DNA of 64,000 nucleotides from Candidatus Aenigmatarchaeota archaeon (GTDB lineage: Archaea > Aenigmatarchaeota > Aenigmatarchaeia > QMZP01 > QMZT01): contig CAVSBQ010000002.1 in NCBI GenBank assembly GCA_963726265.1, positions 160,001 through 224,000 on the forward strand, written 5' to 3'. The notes beneath the pieces are model-generated. The model did no database searches, had not been told where the DNA came from, and worked only from the letters and a program-made list of their open reading frames with translations. Positions 1-51,978 of the stretch are shown piece by piece (position 1 is the stretch's first letter; each line of letters begins with the position of its first letter). The translations under genes were made by a program, and so were the position numbers.

Positions 1-3512
<3,512 letters not shown>

Positions 3513-18438: not shown

Positions 18439-21419
18439 TCAATACTCCCTCAGCACCATCTCTTTCTGCCTCTCGTCGACATTCGGGAATGCGCCAAGTA
18501 TATGCTTCAGCTCTTCTTTCGTCACGCCATAAAGCTTCGCCACCATCACATCAAGTTGGGCGCGCGCGAGCGCGCGGTCGCTCTCGCTCGTCACCGGCTC
18601 GACACCAGTAAGCTTCTTGAGCTCGGCGAACTCGTCGGTCATGCAAACGAGCTGAGCCACTTTCCTGACTATGGCCTCAAATTCCTTCCCAGATGACAGG
18701 CGTGGAACGGGAGTTTCCAGGAAGTTGAACATTGTCACATTTGCGCTTACTTTCTGGCGCATGAAATAGTCAAATACAAAGCTATTCGTAACACCGCATA
18801 GGAAGCACAAATGTTTTAGGTCGGGCATTTTTACTATTGCAATAGAATGTCCGCACACATATCCGGGCGGAATTACCGCCGAGATGAACGTCCTGTAATT
18901 AGTTGAACTGGCAATCAAGCGATATGCCATCCAGTAGCCTTTATGATAAATCTTTTCCGGCTTTAGGTTGGCTTCTATATCCCTTTCCAATATTTTGTAT
19001 CTTGGCGTTGGTGCCTCCTTCCATTGATGGGTAAACTGCTCGATATTTTTACCTTCCAGCATGGGCACGCCGAACAGCCCATTCTTAAACAGGTGGCTGT
19101 CGTTGGTCATGTGGAAGCCGCTTTGCAGTTGGACGTTCCACGTTCCGGAAATATCCCTCCCGAGCGGTGGATGCCTGAGTAGCTTCTGAACGATTTCAAG
19201 GTCTTTCGGGCTTTTGATTTCGAGGACGCTCCATGATGTTGGCGAAGAGGAGCGCACGAAATCCACGTCCATGATAGTAGGGCTTTTGATTGCCCGCTCT
19301 AGGTCTTCCGGTGTGTGCAGGAAGAAGGCGCATGGGAAGGACTGCGTTTTGCCGCCTTTCTGGAATGACACCAAAGCGAATTTCCATCTTTGATCTATAT
19401 CAGGGAAGATAAACTTGCGATTTTCGAAGGAGTAAAGTTTCCTGAGCTGGCAATGTTCGAATAGCATAGTCCTCAAACCCTAGCACCGAGGTCGGTGTAT
19501 ATTCCGCTCGGCAGAACCAGCTCTGCTATGCCGCCGTTCTTGAGTAGCATGTGCGCTTTTTCTGTGAAGAGTTTGTAGAGGTCGAGGTCGCTCGAGACCT
19601 TCCGGCCTTCGCTCTCGGCGGACTGGAAATTGAAGTTTTCCCTGAAGTAATCGGAGAGCATGTCGTATTCATCGTTCTTGTGTTGCCAGCTTATCCTTAT
19701 AGATTTGCGCTTCAGAAGTTCCTCCATTTCCTTTTTCGCTTCCTGCGTTGGCAAACTCTTGAATCCCGGATAAAAACGCTCAAAGAACTCCTGCGAGTCC
19801 GGTTTTCATTTTTCCCACGGAGGGTTGCCGATGACGATGTCGAAGCCTCCCTGTTCATGTATTAGTGGGAAATCCTTTTCCATCCTTAAAGGCTCATGCT
19901 GCTTAAACATCCTTCTCATTTCGACGTCTACATTTCCAGAAACAAGCGAATTTCTTCTAATAATGTTAGGCCTAGGCAATTTCTTAGGCGTGCCTATAGC
20001 CCGCAGGAAAAGGTTCAGCTTCGTGAGCTCTACTGCCTTCTGGTCGATGTCAATCCCATAAAGGCATTTCTCGATAACATCATCAAGAAATCCGAAACCT
20101 GTCCGGCTATCAAATTCAGGACTTGCATCCGAATCGTCGCCGCCATTCTTGCGCTCGAACTCTTCAAACCACATCTTGAACTCTTCAAATGCTTGGACAA
20201 GGAACGTCCCGGAGCCGCACGCCGGGTCAATTACGCGTATTTTTAGCGCGTCGTCGGGCGTTCTGCATTTCTTGAGCCTCTCGCCAAGCGTTGAGCTGAT
20301 AAGATAATCCACTAAAAATTCGGGGGTATAATATATTCCTCCCTGCTTTCTGACGAACGCATCCTTCTCAATGCCTGTACGCTTCTCGGTCTGTGTTACT
20401 TTATAGGACAAATAGTTTTCGTAAGCATGGCCTAGTATGTCGGTTCCTATGGCTTCAAAACGATAGGTAAGCTTGGTTTTGTTGTGGACGTAAAAGGATT
20501 TCAATATTGGCACAAAATCGTCGTTCTTCAGACCGATTCCGTCTATTCTGTGCTCGTCGAATATCGTGCTGTCATATCTCTTCTTCATCGCCCGCCAGAA
20601 GTCGATTAGATATTCCTTGTAAAACTGAATGCGTTTGTCCGTACTTTCCCATTTCTCGATCACGTCCCTCAACCTGAACTCGTGGTTTGCGCTGTTGTCC
20701 TCCGCCATCCTGCAGAATATGATTCTGTCGAGAACGTGTTGGACACAGACGTCCAAGGATTTTTCTTCGTCCATGCTATCGTCCTCGAATAGGTCCAAGT
20801 TCTGCTCTTTCATGGCCTTCGAAAGCTTTTTCCTTATTTCAATCAGCTGGTCTGTGAGCAGGTCCTCAATGCTTTCGCTCTCTTTCCACTTCTTGTGCTT
20901 TTTAGCGTATTCATCCAGCGCAGGACCGCCGTTTTCCTTTGAGAAAAGCAGGAGCCATTTCATATATTCGGCGTTCTCAACACAGCCTCCAAGGTCGAAC
21001 TCGAACAATTCGGCATGTTCCGGCTCGTCATAATAATCAGAATTGAACACTCTCCACTTGGTAAAGTTTGTAAGCACTACCCATCGCATGCCTCCATTCT
21101 TGCCGTATTCCAGCGCCTGTTTTATGTGCTCGGGGTTGTGGAGATTGTCTGAAAACTTTTTTACCTCCATGTAAAACGAAGGCCTTATGTCGCCGGGCCG
21201 CTTGAAGGCGTAGTCCACCCTAGTTGTTTTTACGCCTGACCTGATTTTCTTTTGGGGCCTTACCTCTTTGCTAAGCCATTCCCAGCCCATAGCCTCAAAA
21301 AGATTCCTGATGAATTCTTCTGTGCGCTTTTCAGATTCAGTATTTTTATTTGGAAGCGAGTTATATTTCGCAAATAGTTTCCTAATTTCGATTTTTAAGG
21401 CTTCCTCTCTTTCTGGCAT
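18439..21419 (-). pseudogene. Type IIG (Eco57I-like) restriction-modification fusion, interrupted by an in-frame TGA (19806-19808) and a 1-nt frameshift (~19478)
   Basis: N-terminal nuclease-like VDY..MEVK and LTNF..W motifs; MTase YYTP, DPACGSG and NPPW motifs; C-terminal TRD-like part; ~990 aa if joined. Confidence 0.8.
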
Positions 21420-21681
21420 GCATTTATTTTTTATTCATGACTTAAAATCCTTGCGTTTAAACTTATGCGCATTATGGGCGAGCCCTGCGAGTAAAATATT
21501 AATAAACGCGAATAGATGAGATGAAAATATTGCCGATAATAATTTGCAAAATGGGCTCAAACAAAAATCTTTATAAGCATAAACAGCAATATATAAACAG
21601 ACCTACAGCGCTACGTTTTGCGTCGCTGGCTTGCTCTCAGCGTAAAAGGCATTATGTGGCGCTAAGCTTGATTCTCAGATA

Positions 21682-23562
21682 TTAAATGCCGATAACGATG
21701 CAGTCGTTTAGTGTATAGATTTCGACGTCAATCTGCTCCAGCTCCTGGGTCTGGTTCGACACGACGGCATCGATACTCTTTACTTCCATCCTTATGTCGG
21801 TCGTGTAATTCCCGTTGTATACCGGATAGGGGCCTCCCTCCTGCCATGTATATGCTTTTGTTCCGTTGAGGGTCTCGATGGTGAAGTAGGCCATTTCAGG
21901 CGGGCCACGGACGTAGCCGACCAGCTTTACCGTGTAATATTCATTCCCGAATCTCATGTATCGGCCAGCGCCTATTTGAGAAAGTTCCACCGTGCAGCCG
22001 GTTTCGTTCTTGCATATCCCGCTTCTGCAGCCCAGTGGACATTGGTAGTCGTACGCGCTATAGCCATCCGGATTCGTGCTGTTGCAGTAAAATTCCTTGA
22101 GCCAGCAGTTGCTTCCGAAACATTCTCCGGCGAGAATCGGCTCCCCGACGACGAAGAAGCATACGTCCATTTCTCCTATTTCTTCGTCATTCATATCGAG
22201 GTATCCCTTCTTGTAATAATCCTTGCCGTTGTCGGTATCCTCGCAGACCTTTTCCGTCTGGTTCTGAAGAATGCATCTGGCGTCTTCGCACTCGTAACCC
22301 TGCGGGCAGTTCACAGTTTCCACCTTTATCTCGTTGTTTTCGCAGTATTTCTCCGTCAAGGTTCCATCTTCGTTGCAGTAGTCCGTGAGCGACTGCGTAC
22401 CGAACTCGACCGTGCCTTTTACGTAATAGTTCTTACCGCTGTCCGAGTCTGTGCAGATGCTCTGACCGCCGCAGTCGATCGCGCACGTGTCTTGGGACTC
22501 GCCGATGTCCAGGGTTATCTGCACGGACTGCCCTTCTCCGGAATAGCTGGCAAACTTCAGCGGCATGCCAGAAACTTTCAACGTGCTGCCCTTCCCCATC
22601 TCCTTGCTCACGCCGTCGAGCATTATCACGACCGTGTGAGTGTAAGGTGCGAAGCTCGAAAACTTGACCGTGTGCGCATTCCCGTAAAAAGTGAAATTGT
22701 ATTCCTCGTTCAGCTGCAGGGTTTTTTCGATCGACTCGCAGACGCCGTCTCCGCAGCCCGCACAATGAGATCTGTCGACTATGTCCTTGCCTCCGCCGAC
22801 GAAATTCTCCGGTACCTTGCATTCCTCGGCCGTCGTCCACTCATAAGTTTCGCAGCACTTCACCATCTGGTCTCCGTAACCGTACGATTCGCAGCAGACC
22901 TTCTCTTCATTTCCTGTAGTCTTGCACGCGCCGCTCTCGCAGCCGTTCGCACAGTATTCTTTCTTGCTTTCCTTGTTGCTGCAGCTGTCATACCAGTAAA
23001 CATGACCTTCATAACATTTGATTTCCGCGTGCTTGATGCAGCCTTCCTGGCCGGCTGCCGCCTTGCAGAAGCCGTTTTCGCAGCCGTTCTGGCAATACTC
23101 CTTCTTCTCCTCCTTGTGGCCGCAGGCATCGAACCAGTAGACGTGCTCGCCGTAGCATTTCGCCTCAGCGTGCGACTTGCAGTCCGTTATCGGCTCGCCG
23201 GGCTTGGAGATGGTCTTGTTCAGGCCGCCGCCGTATTTGACCGCGCATTCGATGTTCTTCGTCTCCCAGTCTACCCAGGCAATCGCTTTCAGGCCGCTGT
23301 CCGGGTCGTCGATGCTTATCCTGTAATATTCCTTTGCTGTCATATAGGGGTTGCCGCATTCCGCGCTGATGTTCTCAAGTATCTGGCCGCTCTGCTCGGC
23401 GGTGAAATGGGTGACCGTTATCTTCGCGTTGGGATACTGCTCCATGAACTGTTTGACCAGGGGATTCGCCATAGCGAGCGCCTCGGGGCTGATGTTAAGA
23501 CAACCGGACAAAAAAACAACACAAATCAAAAGAGAACCTAAAACCAAATTGATTTTTTTCAT
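21682..23562 (-). CDS. Cys-rich, repeat-containing surface lipoprotein
   Basis: Lipobox-like VVFLSGC; duplicated HAExKCYxxHVYWxDxC..KKEYCxNGC module; CGDGVC; two CxD(S/T)DxGKxYYxKG repeats. Confidence 0.85.
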   Translation of the reverse strand: MKKINLVLGSLLICVVFLSGCLNISPEALAMANPLVKQFMEQYPNAKITVTHFTAEQSGQILENISAECGNPYMTAKEYYRISIDDPDSGLKAIAWVDWETKNIECAVKYGGGLNKTISKPGEPITDCKSHAEAKCYGEHVYWFDACGHKEEKKEYCQNGCENGFCKAAAGQEGCIKHAEIKCYEGHVYWYDSCSNKESKKEYCANGCESGACKTTGNEEKVCCESYGYGDQMVKCCETYEWTTAEECKVPENFVGGGKDIVDRSHCAGCGDGVCESIEKTLQLNEEYNFTFYGNAHTVKFSSFAPYTHTVVIMLDGVSKEMGKGSTLKVSGMPLKFASYSGEGQSVQITLDIGESQDTCAIDCGGQSICTDSDSGKNYYVKGTVEFGTQSLTDYCNEDGTLTEKYCENNEIKVETVNCPQGYECEDARCILQNQTEKVCEDTDNGKDYYKKGYLDMNDEEIGEMDVCFFVVGEPILAGECFGSNCWLKEFYCNSTNPDGYSAYDYQCPLGCRSGICKNETGCTVELSQIGAGRYMRFGNEYYTVKLVGYVRGPPEMAYFTIETLNGTKAYTWQEGGPYPVYNGNYTTDIRMEVKSIDAVVSNQTQELEQIDVEIYTLNDCIVIGI

Positions 23563-38779: not shown

Positions 38780-39976
38780 GTGATTACAGTGCTTGAACTG
38801 AAATTCGATGCTGAAAGAGGCGTGTGGGCCGACGCGGCCGAAACAGTGGAAAAACTGGCGAGCGATTTCTTCGGCGACAGGGAGAAGGACGTCGTAAAGC
38901 TCATGCCGGAGGAGGCGCTCTACCTCATGCTCTTCAGGAACGCGGTCGTGCACGACGGCGGCAGGGATATGAACTTCAACGACGTCGCAGGCCATTTCGT
39001 GAAGAAGGAGCCAAGGCTTTTCATCCGCTATAACGCCTACCGCGACTGGCGCGATCGAGGCCTTGTCATCAGGAGATTCCGCCTGAACATACAGGGCAAG
39101 CACTCCAAGAAGACGTACAAGAAATACCCTGCGCAGAAGTTCAGCGGCGACAAGATAAAGGCGAAGGCATTCTGGTATCCCGACTCATTGTTTTCCGTCC
39201 TCGACAACGAAGAAGCCGGCAGACAGCTGTTCGAAAGGTTCTGGCTCGGGCAATACGGCGTCTACAAGCAGGAGAGGGGGCAGCAGTCGAAGCTCGACTT
39301 CTTCGAGACCATTTTCATAGCCAAGCATCTCGGCGCCGAGATAATCAACAGCGAGAGCGGGAAGCGGATGACATACCAGGAGGTCGTGAAGGAGGTCGTC
39401 ACCAGACGCGAATACGCGAAGCAGCTGTACGACGTCTACGAGGACTGGCGCATGAAGGCATACGTGGTCAAGACCGGCTTCAAGTTCGGCTCGCACTTCA
39501 GGATTTACTTCCCGGGCGCTTCGCCTGTGAAGGAGGACGAGTGGATACATTCGAGGCACGTTCTCCACGTCTTCCCCAAGGAGCAGAAGCTGCTGATTTC
39601 GGAATGGTCGCGCGCCGTCCGCGTGGCGCATGGCGTCAAGAAGACGTTCATCCTCGGCGTGCCGGAGCTGACGAAGGACGACTACATCGACCTCCCTGTG
39701 GACTTCGTGGCCTACAGGAGGAAGAAGGGCGCGGGCGCATGGGTGCGCGAAACCCCGAAGGACAAGCCGAGATACATGCTCATCGCCGTATCGGAAGACG
39801 AGCACATCGGAGGCGTGGAACTCGCGTCGCTCCTTAACAAGGCGAAGGAGATGGGTCTCAATCTCCTTCTTTCGATCACGGACAGGGAAACCAGCATAAC
39901 CTATTACGAACTGAAGAAGATAATCCTGCCCAAGTCCAAATACGAATACTACGAGATAGAATGGTTCAAGCCGTGA
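38780..39976 (+). CDS. endA: tRNA splicing endonuclease with three-unit (epsilon-2-like) architecture
   Basis: LMPEEALYL..YRDWRDRG unit; catalytic unit VVKTGFKFGSHFRIY..HS..RVAHGVKK; C-terminal beta-like unit; 398 aa. Confidence 0.92.
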   Translation: MITVLELKFDAERGVWADAAETVEKLASDFFGDREKDVVKLMPEEALYLMLFRNAVVHDGGRDMNFNDVAGHFVKKEPRLFIRYNAYRDWRDRGLVIRRFRLNIQGKHSKKTYKKYPAQKFSGDKIKAKAFWYPDSLFSVLDNEEAGRQLFERFWLGQYGVYKQERGQQSKLDFFETIFIAKHLGAEIINSESGKRMTYQEVVKEVVTRREYAKQLYDVYEDWRMKAYVVKTGFKFGSHFRIYFPGASPVKEDEWIHSRHVLHVFPKEQKLLISEWSRAVRVAHGVKKTFILGVPELTKDDYIDLPVDFVAYRRKKGAGAWVRETPKDKPRYMLIAVSEDEHIGGVELASLLNKAKEMGLNLLLSITDRETSITYYELKKIILPKSKYEYYEIEWFKP

Positions 39977-47671: not shown

Positions 47672-48610
47672 TTGATAATTATGATATGCATAATAGCGCT
47701 CGTGGTCTTCAGCGTGCTCGGAATTTTCAGCGCCAAATACAGGACCATCGCCAAGGAAGCGTTTGACTGCGTCTTCAAACGGCTGACCCTTCGAAAATGC
47801 ACGACTGGCCTTGACAAGCGCCTGAAGTCCCAGATAACCGGCAATATCATGCGACGCCATCCGAGATTCGGAGCGGCGGTATACAGGCATTTCGAGGCGA
47901 TATCGTGGGCTTTCACCATAGCCATGATACTGAGCCTCGGCTACTCGGCATACAGCATAGGCAATCTTTTTGTTTACGGCAACTGCAACGGCCCGATACC
48001 CGATGCCTTCTGCGTCTTCGATCCGCTGATTCACGGAGGGACGCAGGACCAGTGCACCGTAGAGGGAGCGAAGCGCGAGATAATAGGCGTTCTCAACGTC
48101 ACTGCGAACGACCCGGCCATTGGGCCAGACACGGCGAAAGTCACTATAATTGAAGCAGGCTGTTTCGTCTGCCCTTACACAAAGCAGGCCGTGCCCACGA
48201 TGCAGCAAATAATATCTTATTACGGCGACAGGATACGCTTCGTCTACAAGGACTTCCCGCTCAGCTCGTCACATTCAGGTGCGCAGGAGGCGGCCGAAGC
48301 TTCGCACTGCGCGCGCGAGCAGGGCGAATACTGGGAATACTTCGATCTCCTGTTCGATAACCAGGGCAAGACCAGCAACGACGACCTTATCGGCTACGCC
48401 AGCCAGCTCAATCTTGATACTGCGCAGTTCTCCGAATGCCTTTCGACGCACAAATACAAGGCGAAGGTCGACGCGGACTTCGCAGAGGGATTCAAGATAG
48501 GCATCTACGGCACGCCGACGTTCTTCATAAACGAGCAGGTCGTGGTCGGGCCGAAGAACTTTGATGAGTTTAAACAGATAATAGACGGCGAGCTGGCAAA
48601 AGGCGGTTAA
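47672..48610 (+). CDS. Membrane-anchored DsbA/thioredoxin-fold protein
   Basis: GPDTAKVTIIE, CPYT, YKDFPL, AAEASHCA.EQG.YWEY and GTPTFFIN motifs. Confidence 0.88.
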   Translation: MIIMICIIALVVFSVLGIFSAKYRTIAKEAFDCVFKRLTLRKCTTGLDKRLKSQITGNIMRRHPRFGAAVYRHFEAISWAFTIAMILSLGYSAYSIGNLFVYGNCNGPIPDAFCVFDPLIHGGTQDQCTVEGAKREIIGVLNVTANDPAIGPDTAKVTIIEAGCFVCPYTKQAVPTMQQIISYYGDRIRFVYKDFPLSSSHSGAQEAAEASHCAREQGEYWEYFDLLFDNQGKTSNDDLIGYASQLNLDTAQFSECLSTHKYKAKVDADFAEGFKIGIYGTPTFFINEQVVVGPKNFDEFKQIIDGELAKGG

Positions 48611-49668
48611 TCCTGTCTGATTAACTGGCTTATCTCTTTGGCCATCCCTTCACTGATGTTATAGCTGTTCGCCCATTTCGCATGCGCACTCCACCCATGA
48701 AAGCTTCTGGCAAGCTCATCGTAGTCCATTTTCCCGCGGGCGAAGAGCGCTATCCTGCCTCTCATTTTTCTTATGCTTCTTTTTCTTAGAAGCCTGAAAT
48801 GATAGAAATTCCTGAAGCCCACGAAGTCGACGCCTCTCGATAACGGAATCACCCTTGATTTCTCGGGATGAAGTTCAAGTTTCAATTCATCTTTCAGGAA
48901 TCCGTTAATCTGCTTCTTCCATTTCTCAAGTCGCGATTTTGATGTATGCAGGATTACAAAATCGTCGACGTATCTTATGTAATGCTTTGCCTTTAACCCA
49001 TGTTTTATGAAATAGTCCATTTCATTGAGATAGACATTGGCGAAGAACTGCGAGGTCAGGTTGCCGAGAGGCATGCCCTTGCCTTTTGTTTCGCCGGGAT
49101 GGTTTTCCAGAATCCGTTCAACCAGCCATATTATCCTTTCGTCCTTTATTCTTTTTCCGATTATTCCTGCCAGAATTTTATGGTCGACCTCCCGAAAATA
49201 GTGCCTTATGTCCGCTTTCAGGCAATAGCCCCGAACATAGTTCTTATCGCCGAAATTGTTCGGCAGAACCCTGCCGTTTCCCGAAACCTTTCTCTTGAAT
49301 TTGTCAAAGCGCTTTATGGCGAACAGGTTTCCTTTGCCTTTTCTGTTCGCGCAGGAATCGTAAATGAAAGTTCTGTCGAAAAGCGGCTCTATGATGTTGC
49401 ACAGCGCATGATGGACTATCCTGTCCCTGAAATCCGATTTTGATATTTTTCTCGTCTTCGGGTCATGGAGGATGAAGGTTTTCAGCGGCAGGGGCTTGTA
49501 AGTCTGATTTTTCAGTTTTTCTCGAAGTTTAAGCAAGTTGCCAGCCAAGTCCCTTTCAAATTCGATGACATAGCGCCTTTTTGTCTTGCTCTTTCTCGCC
49601 TTGCTCCACGCAAGAACCAGATTGTCCATCGAATAGACCCGTTCGTAAAGGTTTTTGCAGGTTTTCAT
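48607..49668 (-). CDS. DGR-class reverse transcriptase (353 aa from MKTCKNL)
   Basis: PKTRKI, FRDRIVHHAL, LKADIRHYF, GMPLGNLTSQFFAN (DGR-type LGxxxSQ), YVDD and FVGF motifs. Confidence 0.95.
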   Translation of the reverse strand: MKTCKNLYERVYSMDNLVLAWSKARKSKTKRRYVIEFERDLAGNLLKLREKLKNQTYKPLPLKTFILHDPKTRKISKSDFRDRIVHHALCNIIEPLFDRTFIYDSCANRKGKGNLFAIKRFDKFKRKVSGNGRVLPNNFGDKNYVRGYCLKADIRHYFREVDHKILAGIIGKRIKDERIIWLVERILENHPGETKGKGMPLGNLTSQFFANVYLNEMDYFIKHGLKAKHYIRYVDDFVILHTSKSRLEKWKKQINGFLKDELKLELHPEKSRVIPLSRGVDFVGFRNFYHFRLLRKRSIRKMRGRIALFARGKMDYDELARSFHGWSAHAKWANSYNISEGMAKEISQLIRQD

Positions 49669-49695
49669 ATCAGAATGTCTTGGCATAATCCGGGC

Positions 49696-49785
49696 TATTC
49701 CAACGAAACGGCCATTGCTGTTGAGGTCGTTGTTGCCGTTGAGACCATTGTTGTAGTCGTTGCCAACGTACAGCAGACGGCCGTT
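49696..49785 (-). repeat. DGR template repeat (TR)
   Basis: 90 nt with nine AAC/AAT triplets; matches the VR at all non-A aligned positions. Confidence 0.95.
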
Positions 49786-49986
49786 TAGTAGCTCTTTTAC
49801 CGAATGCAACACCGCCGCTTCATATTTCGGCAAAGCCTACTTAATGTCGTGGCTGAATTTCATGCCCGCCTGTTGCAGGGCTATAAAAGAGCGTGTAGCC
49901 CGGACATCGCCCTGATTTCAGGGCAATGCCAAGACAAAAATAGTATGATTAGGCGGCTTATAAAATTTGTTCATACGACGCGTTTA

Positions 49987-50697
49987 CTATTTTTCACGTA
50001 CCCCAACGAAACGGCCACCGCTGCCGAGGCCGCCGCCGCCGAGACCATCGTAGCCGCTGCCAACGAACAGCAGACGGCCGTGTGGTTCGTTCGGTTTGGT
50101 GGATAAATCGTCAGAATACCAGATGCTTATCCTATCTCCCTTGACTTTTTTGTGTCTCTCCAAATATCTTTCAGCTCTTTCCTTCCCGCCGAGGAATGGT
50201 TTTGTCTGCGGATGCGTCAGCGCCTGGCCAACAGGAATTATTCCTCTCTGAGAATTCATCAAAGCATCATGTCCGATTGCAAAGACTTCTTCGTCATCTG
50301 CCATGTCCAGAAGCCTTTGAAACTCTTTCTGGGGCATTATCCCGGCGCCGTTGACCAGTCCTTTATTTATGGCTTCCATTATGTTTTTTGGTTTATAAAA
50401 ATGAGTAGGAACGTGAGCATAAACGACGAATTCCGTTCCGCCTTTATGGGACGCGTTTGTTGATGCTCCTCTTCCTGCCACCCTCACGCTGGGGCTATCA
50501 AACCAAACCTGCCAGATTCTGTCCCCCTTGTCTGCCGCAATTCTCGCCTCGGCGATTTCCGGCATGAACAACGGCCTGTACGCCGTGTTTAGACATTCTT
50601 TCAGCGCGTCTGGAATGCCATAATTGCGTCCGCTTGTTTCACGATAAAATTCCCTTGCCGTTGTTCTGATGTTTATGGGGAACGTGTTTTCTGCCAT
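49987..50697 (-). CDS. DGR target protein (probable CLec-fold C-terminus)
   Basis: VR lies at the extreme 3' end: HGRLLFVGSGYDGLGGGGLGSGGRFVGV. Confidence 0.92.
   Translation of the reverse strand: MAENTFPINIRTTAREFYRETSGRNYGIPDALKECLNTAYRPLFMPEIAEARIAADKGDRIWQVWFDSPSVRVAGRGASTNASHKGGTEFVVYAHVPTHFYKPKNIMEAINKGLVNGAGIMPQKEFQRLLDMADDEEVFAIGHDALMNSQRGIIPVGQALTHPQTKPFLGGKERAERYLERHKKVKGDRISIWYSDDLSTKPNEPHGRLLFVGSGYDGLGGGGLGSGGRFVGVREK
49999..50082 (-). repeat. DGR variable repeat (VR)
   Basis: 84 nt; 16 substitutions versus TR, all at TR adenines, plus two 3-nt gaps. Confidence 0.95.
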
Positions 50698-50798
50698 GCT
50701 TTTTATATGAAGATAAGCTTTATAAACCTTTGGTTTGTTGCCACCGAAGAGATGTAAATTAACGATAATCAGTGACCAACCAGTGGCAAAGATTTATA

Positions 50799-50836
50799 TA
50801 TTACTTTTTGTAATAATATTATTACATAAAGTAATA
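50799..50836. promoter_or_regulatory. 38-bp near-perfect palindrome, putative autoregulatory operator
   Basis: TATTACTTTTTGTAATAAT/ATTATTACATAAAGTAATA with one mismatch, abutting a TTTATATA box upstream of the MNT gene. Confidence 0.7.
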
Positions 50837-50849
50837 ATTAGGGGGATTT

Positions 50850-51416
50850 ATGAAGAGCGACATAGCGATACTGAAGCTCCTGCTCGGCAGGAAGGATGAG
50901 AAATTCACGATTAAAAAAATAGCCGAAGCCCTGAAAATCAACTACAGGATAGCTTATGAGCAGGCCATGGCGCTGGAGAAAGGAGGCCTGCTCAAAATCA
51001 CGAAAACGGGCAATTCCAACTTTTGCGAGTTCACGTATGCGTTTGACAGCAGGGTTTTCGAAGCGGAGTATGCAAGAAGGAAGGAGCTTCTGAAAAACAG
51101 AGACTTTCTTGTGCTCCATAACAGGCTGGCGGAGCTCAGGTTTCCTTTCATCGCCTTGCTGTTCGGCTCTCATGCAAAGGGGGTCGCTGACAAACATTCA
51201 GACATTGACATTCTAACGATTGGCGGGGATGCAAAGGAGATAAAGGCGGCAGTTTCGCTGCTGCCATACAAAATTCATCTGACATCCGTGGACTACGAAA
51301 ACTTCATCGCCATGGCAAAAAGCAGGGAATTCACGGTGGTGAGCGAAGCGCTCAAAAACAATGTTATATTAATCGGGATAGAAGAATATTACAGGTTGCT
51401 GTCAAATGCTGGATGA
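50850..51416 (+). CDS. HTH-fused minimal nucleotidyltransferase (MNT antitoxin-like)
   Basis: N-terminal FTIKKIAEALKINY HTH; LFGSHAKG..SDIDIL motif. Confidence 0.88.
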   Translation: MKSDIAILKLLLGRKDEKFTIKKIAEALKINYRIAYEQAMALEKGGLLKITKTGNSNFCEFTYAFDSRVFEAEYARRKELLKNRDFLVLHNRLAELRFPFIALLFGSHAKGVADKHSDIDILTIGGDAKEIKAAVSLLPYKIHLTSVDYENFIAMAKSREFTVVSEALKNNVILIGIEEYYRLLSNAG

Positions 51417-51939
51417 AAAGAGAGTGAAGGAAGCCGGAGATAATGTCAGGTCCTACCTGGAAGAAGGCCTGCTCAGAAAAACGGCCGTGAACAGGCAGGT
51501 AATGGACATTCTGATAAAAAACGCTAGGGAAAGCCTGAGGGTAGCGGAAGAAATCCGGCAAAAAAATCTGTCGGATTTGTGGGTTATCGTATGCTCGTAT
51601 TATGCAATGTTTTATTACGCAAATGCCGTTCTCCTGAAACTCGGCTACAAGATGGGGGACAAGATTGTCCACAAGGTGACTTCGGACTCGATGATTGTCT
51701 ATGTCAGAGGGAAGCTGAAGGAGTCTCTGATAGAAGATTACGAGCAGACAAAGGAAGAAGCGCTAAACCTTGCCGGCATGAAAGCGGACTCGCTGATTGA
51801 ATCATTCGAGTTTGAAAGGAACAAACGAAGATTAATCCAGTATAAAACCATAGAAGTCGAGAAGCAATCCAAAGCCAAAACGTCGCTGCAGAGAGCTAAG
51901 GAATTTGCAAAGGAAATGGATAAATTGCTTGCTGTATAA
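51406..51939 (+). CDS. HEPN domain protein (toxin-like)
   Basis: SYYAMFYYANAVL, KIVH and RRLIQY motifs; overlaps the MNT gene. Confidence 0.85.
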   Translation: MLDEKRVKEAGDNVRSYLEEGLLRKTAVNRQVMDILIKNARESLRVAEEIRQKNLSDLWVIVCSYYAMFYYANAVLLKLGYKMGDKIVHKVTSDSMIVYVRGKLKESLIEDYEQTKEEALNLAGMKADSLIESFEFERNKRRLIQYKTIEVEKQSKAKTSLQRAKEFAKEMDKLLAV

Positions 51940-51978
51940 ATTATGGCAACAATAATTATAATGAAGAATGGTGGCTGA

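Follow-up and report, generated by a model that had tools for sequence, protein, structure and literature searches.

AvpA-type diversity-generating retroelements (DGRs) have been known in DPANN archaea since 2015, when they were described from DUSEL4 Nanoarchaeota (Paul et al. 2015, PMC4372165; Handa et al. 2016, PMC5006420; PDB 5IOO); a first-pass annotation of the present locus rightly noted that DGRs occur in DPANN. The available text of both papers proposes Avd-like ORFs and leaves the RNA undescribed; there the AvpA extension of about 46 residues is disordered in the crystal (PDB 5IOO; PMC5006420). In Bordetella phage BPP-1 the order is mtd-avd-TR-Sp-brt, priming takes place in the 140-nt spacer that follows the TR, and Avd is required (PMC5703328; bioRxiv 10.1101/2023.10.23.563531). 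Wu et al. 2018 (PMC5758913) reported codon indels beside AAC repeats in about 7% of DGRs and left open a mechanism independent of Avd. The available main text of Weinberg et al. 2017 (PMC5737381) assigns only the RT-10 RNA to a DGR and speculates on others.

We analysed a 64,000-nt stretch of archaeal DNA (the window), whose relevant features are listed in Table 1. The A-only pattern of differences between TR and VR, the DGR-type RT, the AvpA-family target and the IMH/IMH* pair bear out the original identification, and the element is a DGR virtually beyond doubt. The target-TR-RT layout stands as first described, except that about 200 nt between the target and the TR are RT-16, a conserved RNA with a defined structure, which had been overlooked.

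Table 1. Features of the element and its surroundings, in window positions
Feature	Position	Strand	Details
Target gene, 236 aa, AvpA-family C-type-lectin-fold (CLec) protein	49987..50697	minus	ends 3 residues past VR
VR	50082-49999	minus	84 nt, encoding residues 206-233 of the target; shorter than TR by two in-frame 3-nt deletions
IMH GGGGTA, VR 3' end	50004-49999	minus	
Rfam RT-16 RNA (RF03019), 5' part of template RNA	49783..49934	minus	91.8 bits, gathering score 50; E 2e-15
Helix D0 5' strand, outer closing helix	49926..49936	minus	pairs with 49686-49676
Helix D1 5' strand and CAC	49893..49903	minus	49903-49896 pairs with 49690-49697
Helix P2 and enclosed stems	49791..49892	minus	49892-49884 pairs with 49799-49791
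TR	49785-49696	minus	90 nt; 14 variable codons; no intron-like insert
IMH* GGAATA, TR 3' end	49701-49696	minus	
27-nt spacer, TR to RT start	49669..49695	minus	most of the D1 3' strand, all of that of D0
DGR RT, 353 aa, intact	48607..49668	minus	PF00078; single copy in assembly
3.4-kb island: DGR and MNT-HEPN-like gene pair	48611..51969		GC 0.456 against 0.53
MNT-HEPN-like gene pair	50850-51416, 51406-51939		Pfam/NCBIfam matches mostly at or below cut-off
Imperfect 9-bp repeats flanking island	48602-48610 and 51970-51978		

The TR and VR sequences were found as quoted in the first-pass annotation, and its count was reproduced with its own gap placement: 0 of 62 non-A positions and 16 of 22 adenines differ. 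Because one additional A may be included at the 5' edge, the latter count can also be given as 16/23. The second gap can be placed equally well over GGC, in which case 18 of 24 adenines and 0 of 60 non-A positions differ. By chance alone, adenines would account for every one of the 16 mismatches with a probability of 1.2e-12. All 16 changes are indeed at A, but two of them make up the invariant GG in the IMH and are not mutagenised sites, the change from A to G being found there in 77 of 79 related TR/VR pairs; hence the mutagenised count in the original alignment is 14/19. At their 3' ends, the VR carries IMH TGGGGT and the TR carries IMH* TGGAAT, both matching PMC4372165. At VR position +1 of the related pairs, A is kept in 54/54 and G follows the TR in 24/25. 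This position is not mutagenised yet tracks the TR, a behaviour that pairing of the primer strand with the IMH would produce; shared ancestry may also be the source of the covariation. The coding capacity of the TR is about 4e13 protein variants, a stop codon being never reachable. Codon indels next to AAC repeats were observed in 11/79 related pairs.

Both RT motifs named in the first-pass annotation, LGNLTSQ and YVDD, were located (GMPLGNLTSQ at residue 198, YVDD at residue 233). The likely start is ATG 49668 rather than TTG 49833, because an ORF from the latter would traverse the RNA; the resulting 408-aa RT was rejected for this overlap with RT-16. The closest solved relative is the DGR RT 8ub7 (E 8e-48), other RTs matching at 1e-19 or weaker, and the best phage match is the RT of the ANMV-1 DGR. 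In a quick tree of top hits, constructed with neither an AU test nor a group II intron or retron outgroup, the RT nests among Nanobdellota RTs (SH-aLRT 98). The phylogenetic placement proposed earlier was thus obtained in part: DGR RTs rank best, and given the missing outgroup the assignment to the DGR clade rests on this ranking. One could instead suppose a group II intron remnant or a retron beside a chance repeat, since the top NCBIfam match is a group II RT/maturase and the closed 5'-3' helix has retron-like geometry. However, this match (TIGR04416) scored 141.5 bits against a cut-off of 300, with intron domains scanned over 49600-50100, and the retron model NF038233 scored 42.3 against 235, and the looped-out template, a TR, has its own cognate VR. 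Together with DGR RTs as the best structure and phage matches, the A-only repeats and the AvpA target already refute this supposition, and its remaining probability is negligible. Neither a second RT nor remote targets were found in the genome by tblastn, blastn, an A-tolerant scan and a profile search.

The target had been described as a hypervariable binding protein without an assigned function. No family is recognised in Pfam and NCBIfam; it is nevertheless a homologue of the structurally solved AvpA (5IOO; phmmer E 6e-52, 46% identical). The CLec fold, suggested earlier as a check, was found in the predicted structure and is of the AvpA subclass (pLDDT 93.7; Foldseek TM 0.83/0.94, rmsd 1.6), and by this model and by homology the VR sits in the C-terminal binding site. 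The AvpA motif GxxVVVYAH appears as GTEFVVYAH, with one substitution, and HPxxxPFxG and RFxGV as HPQTKPFLG and RFVGV. Among 50 target homologues found, the four with a taxon name are all from DPANN. The post-VR extension of AvpA is absent here; it is also missing in some homologues, with tails of at most 10 aa in 15/79 related pairs. The earlier claim that there is no TM segment held, as no hydrophobic segment was found (maximum 19-residue Kyte-Doolittle mean 0.66). The target is presumably cytoplasmic; tentatively, it might bind variable ligands in the cytoplasm and serve the cell in conflicts, be it with viruses or with partner cells.

The RT-16 match spans the whole model, positions 1-158. 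Helix D0 is predicted with pair probability of 0.89-1.0 for 9 of its 11 pairs, and the fold has a z-score of -6.2. P2 ends 5 nt before the start of TR-VR homology and is a candidate stop for cDNA synthesis. RT-16 exceeded the gathering score in all 15 complete AvpA-TR-RT loci, the AvpA locus (L062) among them, and was found in 0/3 target loci lacking an RT. A search from the RNA motif alone yielded a related RT downstream in 63 of the 67 metagenome loci having at least 500 nt of downstream sequence. Viral contigs gave 0 matches to the RT-16 pattern, and neither ANMV-1 nor vir525 has an RT-16 match. In the literature we found no published link of RT-16 to DGRs and no intron-like TR inserts. An antisense 100-aa ORF (49804-50106) was rejected as a gene, as it overlies the RNA and has no Pfam match. 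Scanning for sigma-70 promoters and terminators gave results at chance level with models unsuited to archaea.

Helix D1 was assessed in 117 non-identical loci, which are related rather than independent and in which the invariance of ACA and AAT is built in by the motif filter. Pairing was observed in 90.6% of cells against 77.4% (maximum 80.7%) for shuffled partners and fell to 25-50% when the strands were slid; the six best mutual-information pairs were all in register. The tool count on 16 loci gave 92.5% against 76.7%. The cognate end-to-end duplex has -22.9 kcal/mol compared with -14.5 kcal/mol for swapped partners, yet the cognate is the best duplex partner in only 24/117 loci. The end pattern of D1 (A:U, Y:R, frequent mismatch, G:C) recurs in the SpA56 primer duplex, as read in Bordetella phage BIP-1. 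RT-16 pairs with the approximately 27 nt behind the TR, and an A is thereby placed opposite the TR 3' end, as the BPP-1 primer does, though here it comes from the upstream side. The D1 covariation and a comparison of its geometry with that of the Bordetella phage spacer point to A49896 as the candidate nucleotide for priming.

We consider it probable that this is a working AvpA-type DGR of the order target-RNA-TR-RT, with no accessory gene and RNA-primed from the upstream strand. A single transcript would comprise RT-16, the TR and the short 3' spacer. Its two ends would pair via D0 and D1, so that the TR would be looped out between P2 and D1. The RT would bind the folded RNA without Avd, prime in cis from the D1 5' strand, most likely at A49896 or alternatively at A49894, and copy the TR toward P2, misreading adenines; cDNA synthesis would end at P2. 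The RNA-cDNA would pair with the VR at the IMH and replace codons 206-231 of the soluble CLec-fold binding protein. For transcription, priming site, stop and Avd independence taken together, the balance leans towards this account.

The primer might also come from nicked target DNA, the transcript 3' end or another RNA, with RT-16 binding the RT and fixing the TR boundaries. Priming at A49896 needs an extra assumption (bases not transferred, or selected), as the first two template bases are A and the VR has G in 77/79 pairs; the G at IMH -1 and -2 is thus not as expected from copying at A49896. Moreover, D1 resembles the 'cPRT Stop' duplex, which pairs sequences from either side of the TR, and UACACG, a weak 6-mer match, occurs within the BIP-1 thumb-ring segment. 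Against this, D1 is oriented and placed as a template:primer duplex would be, with terminal pairs mirroring those of BIP-1, and on the 5' side P2 already bounds the homology. We regard such an external primer as improbable.

The avd gene, present in 74% of DGRs and not defining for architecture A, was not found above the cut-off in the genome of the window, whose completeness is 88%, so that an Avd encoded elsewhere could be missed; a candidate at E 0.05 (13.9 bits) was rejected. Avd was above the cut-off in none of the 16 genomes with the cassette (this one and 15 others), and the Avd profile matched none of the ORFs of at least 60 aa in 16 target-RT spacers. One match under the cut-off in another genome (G044, E 1e-5) was discarded, being a 126-aa ORF beside a 16S gene at a locus without an RT. 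In 7 of 51 RT-selected loci an Avd-like gene lies between TR and RT, six of them also having RT-16, and a rule that RT-16 replaces Avd was rejected because both co-occur in these six. Avd is optional in the lineage. These sister loci, the incomplete genome, the requirement of bRT for Avd (bioRxiv 10.1101/2023.10.23.563531) and the Avd-like ORFs marked between target and RT in the available text of Paul 2015 (PMC4372165) speak for a conventional DGR, with Avd supplied in trans by a gene that escaped assembly or recognition, a BPP-1-like primer 3' of the TR, possibly within the RT coding region, and RT-16 only as a leader or stabiliser. This is unlikely in view of the negative Avd searches in cassette-bearing genomes and spacers and of the median TR-to-ATG gap of about 27 nt, mostly occupied by D1 and D0; the 27-nt spacer here can accommodate neither an avd gene nor a 140-nt Sp RNA of the BPP-1 type.

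A second VR allele was found on a sediment contig (X1, covering 49903-50166), with four differences, 4/4 at TR adenines (P 4e-5); it is one contig of depth 6.2, from a run that is possibly the source of the window, with the TR centre uncovered. No differences were found in six other near-identical X1 pieces (1511 nt) and four X2 pieces (655 nt), and about 1.5 kb of DNA flanking the VR is identical between the sources of the alleles. The A-restricted VR variation predicted by the first-pass annotation is thus observed, in this one contig, and the DGR has very likely been active recently. In a decaying copy, past homing after loss of the target tail and post-VR hairpin and after the VR deletions, the second allele would represent old variation. 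The tail of 3 aa, the two deletions and the identity of the A positions between them in both alleles fit such decay, as does the absence of the post-VR DNA hairpin, common in DGRs and not universal: no perfect stem of at least 4 bp was found in the 70 nt after the VR. A hairpin at 49926-49907 was rejected as the DGR DNA cruciform, lying 70 nt away from the VR within the RT-16 RNA. However, the GC-rich hairpin, present in 60/79 related pairs, is likewise missing in 19/79, short tails recur among these pairs, the RT is intact and free of slippery runs, TR and VR have no non-A mismatch, and the alleles differ at TR adenines only between identical flanks. Decay is accordingly very unlikely.

The insertion point of the island coincides with the final codons of a DsbA-like gene, and the empty site is found in three genomes of the same genus (G002, G003, G004). 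The host is probably a member of Micrarchaeota, and the DGR was probably acquired from a Nanobdellota-like donor.

In other DGRs of the host phylum, the TR contains inserts missing from the VR in 22/22 cases with an alignable VR, mostly of bulge-helix-bulge (BHB) intron shape. In the RNA studied here, four geometric BHB candidates each had a pair probability of 0.0 and were rejected. Simple hairpin bypass is disfavoured as the origin of the relatives' inserts, because the VR retains the 5' strand of the central helix. If spliced, the inserts would give archaeal splicing endonucleases a new class of substrate and would conceal these DGRs from repeat-matching surveys. An EndA of the epsilon2 type is encoded at 38780-39973. 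A wider reading is about as likely as not: in DPANN DGRs the 5' RT-16 would bind the RT, prime, and close on the template 3' end, with the RT working without Avd, and Micrarchaeota TR RNAs would carry BHB introns, whose excision by the host tRNA-splicing endonuclease would have to precede copying, tying hypermutation to RNA splicing in the host. The present element, as intron-free, Avd-free, active and recently acquired, would then be the simplest to reconstitute.

The sole solved DGR complex depends on Avd together with a spacer downstream. A system of two parts, a 353-aa RT and an RNA of about 260 nt, with a predicted primer nucleotide, makes the question of Avd-free priming testable and would be a smaller mutagenesis tool; the orphan Rfam family RT-16 would gain a predicted function.

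The DGR itself is an ordinary member of the family known since 2015. It shares with DUSEL4/AvpA the target-TR-RT order, IMH TGGGGT, IMH* TGGAAT and a 46% identical CLec-fold target, and with the AvpA locus an RT of about 54% identity and the RT-16 RNA. It differs from DUSEL4/AvpA in that its host is probably from Micrarchaeota, it is a single cassette without remote targets, its target has neither the 46-aa tail nor the GRA-loop hairpin, and the VR has two codon deletions. A-specific mutagenesis, IMH/IMH*, a TR looped out by long-range helices and, at the 3' end of the TR, a short duplex with A:U as its last pair are as in BPP-1 (PMC5703328; bioRxiv 10.1101/2023.10.23.563531), whereas here a structured stretch of about 150 nt precedes the TR, 27 nt follow it, and Avd was not found. 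In the Rfam RT-16 model the 5' strand is paired locally, while in the present RNA it forms the long-range D0 and D1 with the far side of the TR. With codon indels and no avd, the element resembles architecture A1 (TR-RT, no accessory gene; Wu et al. 2018, PMC5758913), and its RT-16-TR RNA may explain, within one lineage, how DGRs work without Avd.

The diversity-generating retroelement (DGR) is real and probably active. Both repeats quoted in the first-pass annotation were found (table), and the recount agreed with it: TR and VR agree at every aligned non-A position, whereas 16 of the 22 aligned adenines differ, or 18 of 24 if the second VR gap is placed over GGC. The probability that all 16 mismatches land on adenines by chance is 1.2e-12. 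In 79 related TR/VR pairs 53% of adenines are changed (to G 640, T 323, C 47), and non-A bases at 29 of 4320 positions. Codon indels beside AAC repeats occur in 11 of these pairs, and in about 7% of DGRs according to the available part of PMC5758913. The RT and the target are each single-copy in the 1.13-Mb assembly (88% complete), in which no remote VR was found. The predicted A-restricted polymorphism of the VR appeared in X1, one of the two listed sequencing runs having contigs that match the window (X1 and X2). One X1 contig spans 49903–50166 with four differences and no gaps; all four (50018, 50022, 50024, 50054) fall on TR adenines (P = 4e-5). Six further X1 pieces of near-identical sequence, 1511 nt together, and four X2 pieces (655 nt) showed no differences. 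This polymorphism is seen in one contig, from a run that may be the window's own source.

Features of the window, with their positions
Feature	Position	Strand	Remarks
tRNA-splicing endonuclease	38780-39973	+	398 aa; nearest Atlas clusters mostly Microcaldota (Micrarchaeota)
TR	49785-49696	minus	sequence as quoted in the first-pass annotation
VR	50082-49999	minus	sequence as quoted; two 3-nt deletions vs TR
AT-rich palindrome	50799-50836		in front of the nucleotidyltransferase/HEPN-like pair
HTH-nucleotidyltransferase and HEPN-like pair	50850-51939	+	divergent from the target; same island

The RT (353 aa, start ATG at 49668) carries GMPLGNLTSQ, which includes the LGNLTSQ noted earlier, and YVDD. 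Its top solved relative is 8ub7 (E 8e-48), the bRT of phage BPP-1, with other listed RTs at 1e-19 or weaker, and its top phage match is the RT of the ANMV-1 DGR. Its scores against the group II and retron family models fall well short of the cut-offs. Seven of 16 related RT genes are broken into two frames (loci L003, L024, L044, L053, L054, L063; RT residues ~190–250), with a run of ~7–10 G at the break in six of the seven, a possible on/off switch or a sequencing artefact; the longest single-base run in the window's RT is at most 5. Loci L209 and L254 encode DGR RTs of ~570 aa with a C-terminal extension and have target and RT-16 upstream on the opposite strand; many similar frames of 550–620 aa were seen.

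The target has no match in Pfam or NCBIfam. Its homologues number 50, and the four that are taxon-named are all from DPANN. AvpA (PDB 5IOO), described in the accessible text of PMC5006420 and PMC4372165 as the CLec-fold variable protein of DUSEL4 DGRs, is matched by the target profile (E 9e-111) and by the single sequence (E 6e-52). The structure model (pLDDT 93.7) aligns to 5IOO with TM 0.83/0.94, which bears out the suspected CLec fold. Translation of locus L062 yields the VR and tail of AvpA; the window's target, compared with AvpA, ends three residues past VR. The GNA-loop hairpin present in 60 of the 79 related pairs is absent from the window's copy. Several Nanobdellota genomes have 3–5 AvpA paralogues (L002, L003, L013; L043, L047, L049–L051; L031), most without an RT inside the flank examined, consistent with remote targets.

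In three genomes of the same genus (G002, G003, G004) the DsbA-like gene directly adjoins the cysteine desulfurase-like gene; in the window they are separated by 3.4 kb of lower-GC DNA containing the DGR and the MNT-HEPN-like pair. DNA related to this pair was found elsewhere in G003 and in another genome, G029. The window's RT was found in none of four same-genus genomes. A quick tree built from 75 RTs (top matches per phylum, those with fewer than 270 aligned residues excluded) places it in a clade of 43 rows (SH-aLRT 98), together with Nanobdellota RTs and L209; the other RTs of the host phylum, probably Micrarchaeota, lie outside. On this tree, the DGR was likely transferred from Nanobdellota. 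Elsewhere in the window, gyrase A is apparently split into overlapping ORFs (950–1447 and 1380–3509, +), possibly by a frameshift or assembly error. A lower-GC stretch at 19809–23562 (−), with an N6-methyltransferase-like ORF beside a 626-aa ORF without Pfam match, is a possible restriction-modification island.

TR inserts that never reach VR were found in 22 of the 23 host-phylum DGRs with alignable VR (L189, L191, L200, L202–L207, L210, L212–L216, L218, L220, L221, L223–L226), the exception being the window, whose TR has no such insert; among Nanobdellota DGRs with alignable VR they occur in 2 of 23 (L227, L252). Each insert-bearing locus has 1–3 segments of 15–58 nt. On both sides of the inserts each VR still matches its own TR at non-A positions, so their removal is ongoing; it also looks obligatory, since the aligned length of 16 of the 50 is not divisible by 3. 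The inserts could be lost by RT jumping between their two A-rich bulges. The bulge-helix-bulge geometry of an endonuclease junction (4-bp helix, 3-nt bulge) fits 36 of the 50, where random positions gave 1.5 (maximum 7) and other bulge lengths no more than 13; most of the 14 that fail this strict test have three of the four central pairs. The outer helix is weak and several cut offsets are compatible. The template RNA looks as if it were spliced in the manner of tRNAs, and removal of the inserts by the host endonuclease is the simplest reading and a rather probable one. The window's splicing endonuclease groups with Microcaldota (Micrarchaeota) enzymes and fits the size of the broad-specificity epsilon2 enzyme, 387–390 aa, which cuts relaxed motifs (PMC3239211). 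Many of the genome's tRNAs have ARAGORN intron calls, of which some are probably false.

The target–TR interval is Rfam RT-16 (91.8 bits). In the 19 of 64 loci covered, all 15 complete AvpA-TR-RT loci had RT-16 above the gathering score; it was absent from the other four, namely three target loci without an RT and the collapsed locus L046. An RNA-only pattern found at least 120 metagenome loci. Among those listed, a related RT follows in 63 of 67 having at least 500 nt downstream, mostly 105–145 nt on, and an AvpA-like target is present in only 9 of 56; the RNA therefore accompanies the RT lineage, not one particular target. From the RT side, the profile found the RNA in 46 of 51 loci with more than 700 nt upstream, the window included (two on the opposite strand, not scored as matches), and an Rfam search added L201, L234 and L245. 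Folding of the complete 282-nt unit gives z = −6.2. Two helices missing from the Rfam model connect the RNA's 5' part with 27 nt behind TR. For one, D1 (5' strand 49903–49896), 90.6% of cells are paired across 117 non-identical loci; shuffling the partners lowers this to 77.4%, and sliding to 25–50%. These loci were selected for carrying both search motifs, which by itself fixes the ACA and AAT columns, and the related ones among them are not independent. The top six mutual-information pairs are all in register, and a second count in 16 loci gave 92.5% against 76.7%, with two-sided changes at 7 of 10 pairs.

Profiles NF033474 and PF22296 detected no Avd, the DGR accessory protein, above cut-off in the window's genome or 15 genomes with the same cassette; two of three control relatives have it, adjacent to their RT. 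ORFs of at least 60 aa, nearly all antisense, occur in 10 of 16 target–RT spacers, and none matched an Avd profile built from seven sequences, which suggests that the 'Avd-like ORFs' in Fig. 3 of PMC4372165, as far as its available text goes, may overlie the RNA. An Avd-like gene lies between TR and RT in 7 of 51 loci, six of them also with RT-16; Avd is thus optional rather than replaced by RT-16.

AvpA-type DPANN DGRs, the Avd-less architecture and codon indels are already published. The RT-16/DGR link was not found described in the searched literature; Paul et al. 2017, the Weinberg supplement and the cryo-EM paper as published in its journal, all outside that literature, may bear on it and on the TR introns. 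In the portions available, RT-10 is the one RNA that PMC5737381 ties to a DGR, with speculation on others, the survey of RNAs in the cryo-EM preprint (bioRxiv 10.1101/2023.10.23.563531) concerns DGRs with Avd, and PMC8867640 and 10.64898/2026.09.22.753630 have nothing on the RT-16 link or TR introns. Among the papers that the searches listed, none described bulge-helix-bulge introns in DGR templates; PMC7289037, from its available part, is unrelated to Micrarchaeota DGR introns. The element is ordinary, yet through its RNA the priming of a DGR without Avd becomes open to direct test, and spliced templates are suggested by its relatives.

We infer that priming would occur from the 5' strand of D1, at A49896 or else A49894, and that helix P2 (49892–49884 with 49799–49791), which ends 5 nt ahead of the TR–VR homology, would stop cDNA synthesis. 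In 77 of 79 pairs G occupies IMH positions −1 and −2, and position +1 is never mutagenised yet tracks TR, which makes IMH a fixed recognition site where the primer strand could pair. One point speaks against A49896: a start there would copy the two IMH* adenines first, which calls for trimming or selection at these positions unless A49894 is the primer. In BPP-1, according to the available parts of bioRxiv 10.1101/2023.10.23.563531 and PMC5703328, spacer nucleotide A56, held in a duplex with the 3' end of TR, serves as the primer; a second duplex halts synthesis, and IMH is a better pairing partner for the primer strand than IMH*. The primer duplex read from phage BIP-1 ends in A:U, C:G, a U-C mismatch and G:C, and D1 in A:U, Y:R, C:G or C-A (29 of 117) and G:C. 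D1 has the same polarity as the BPP-1-type duplex, but its primer strand lies upstream of TR.
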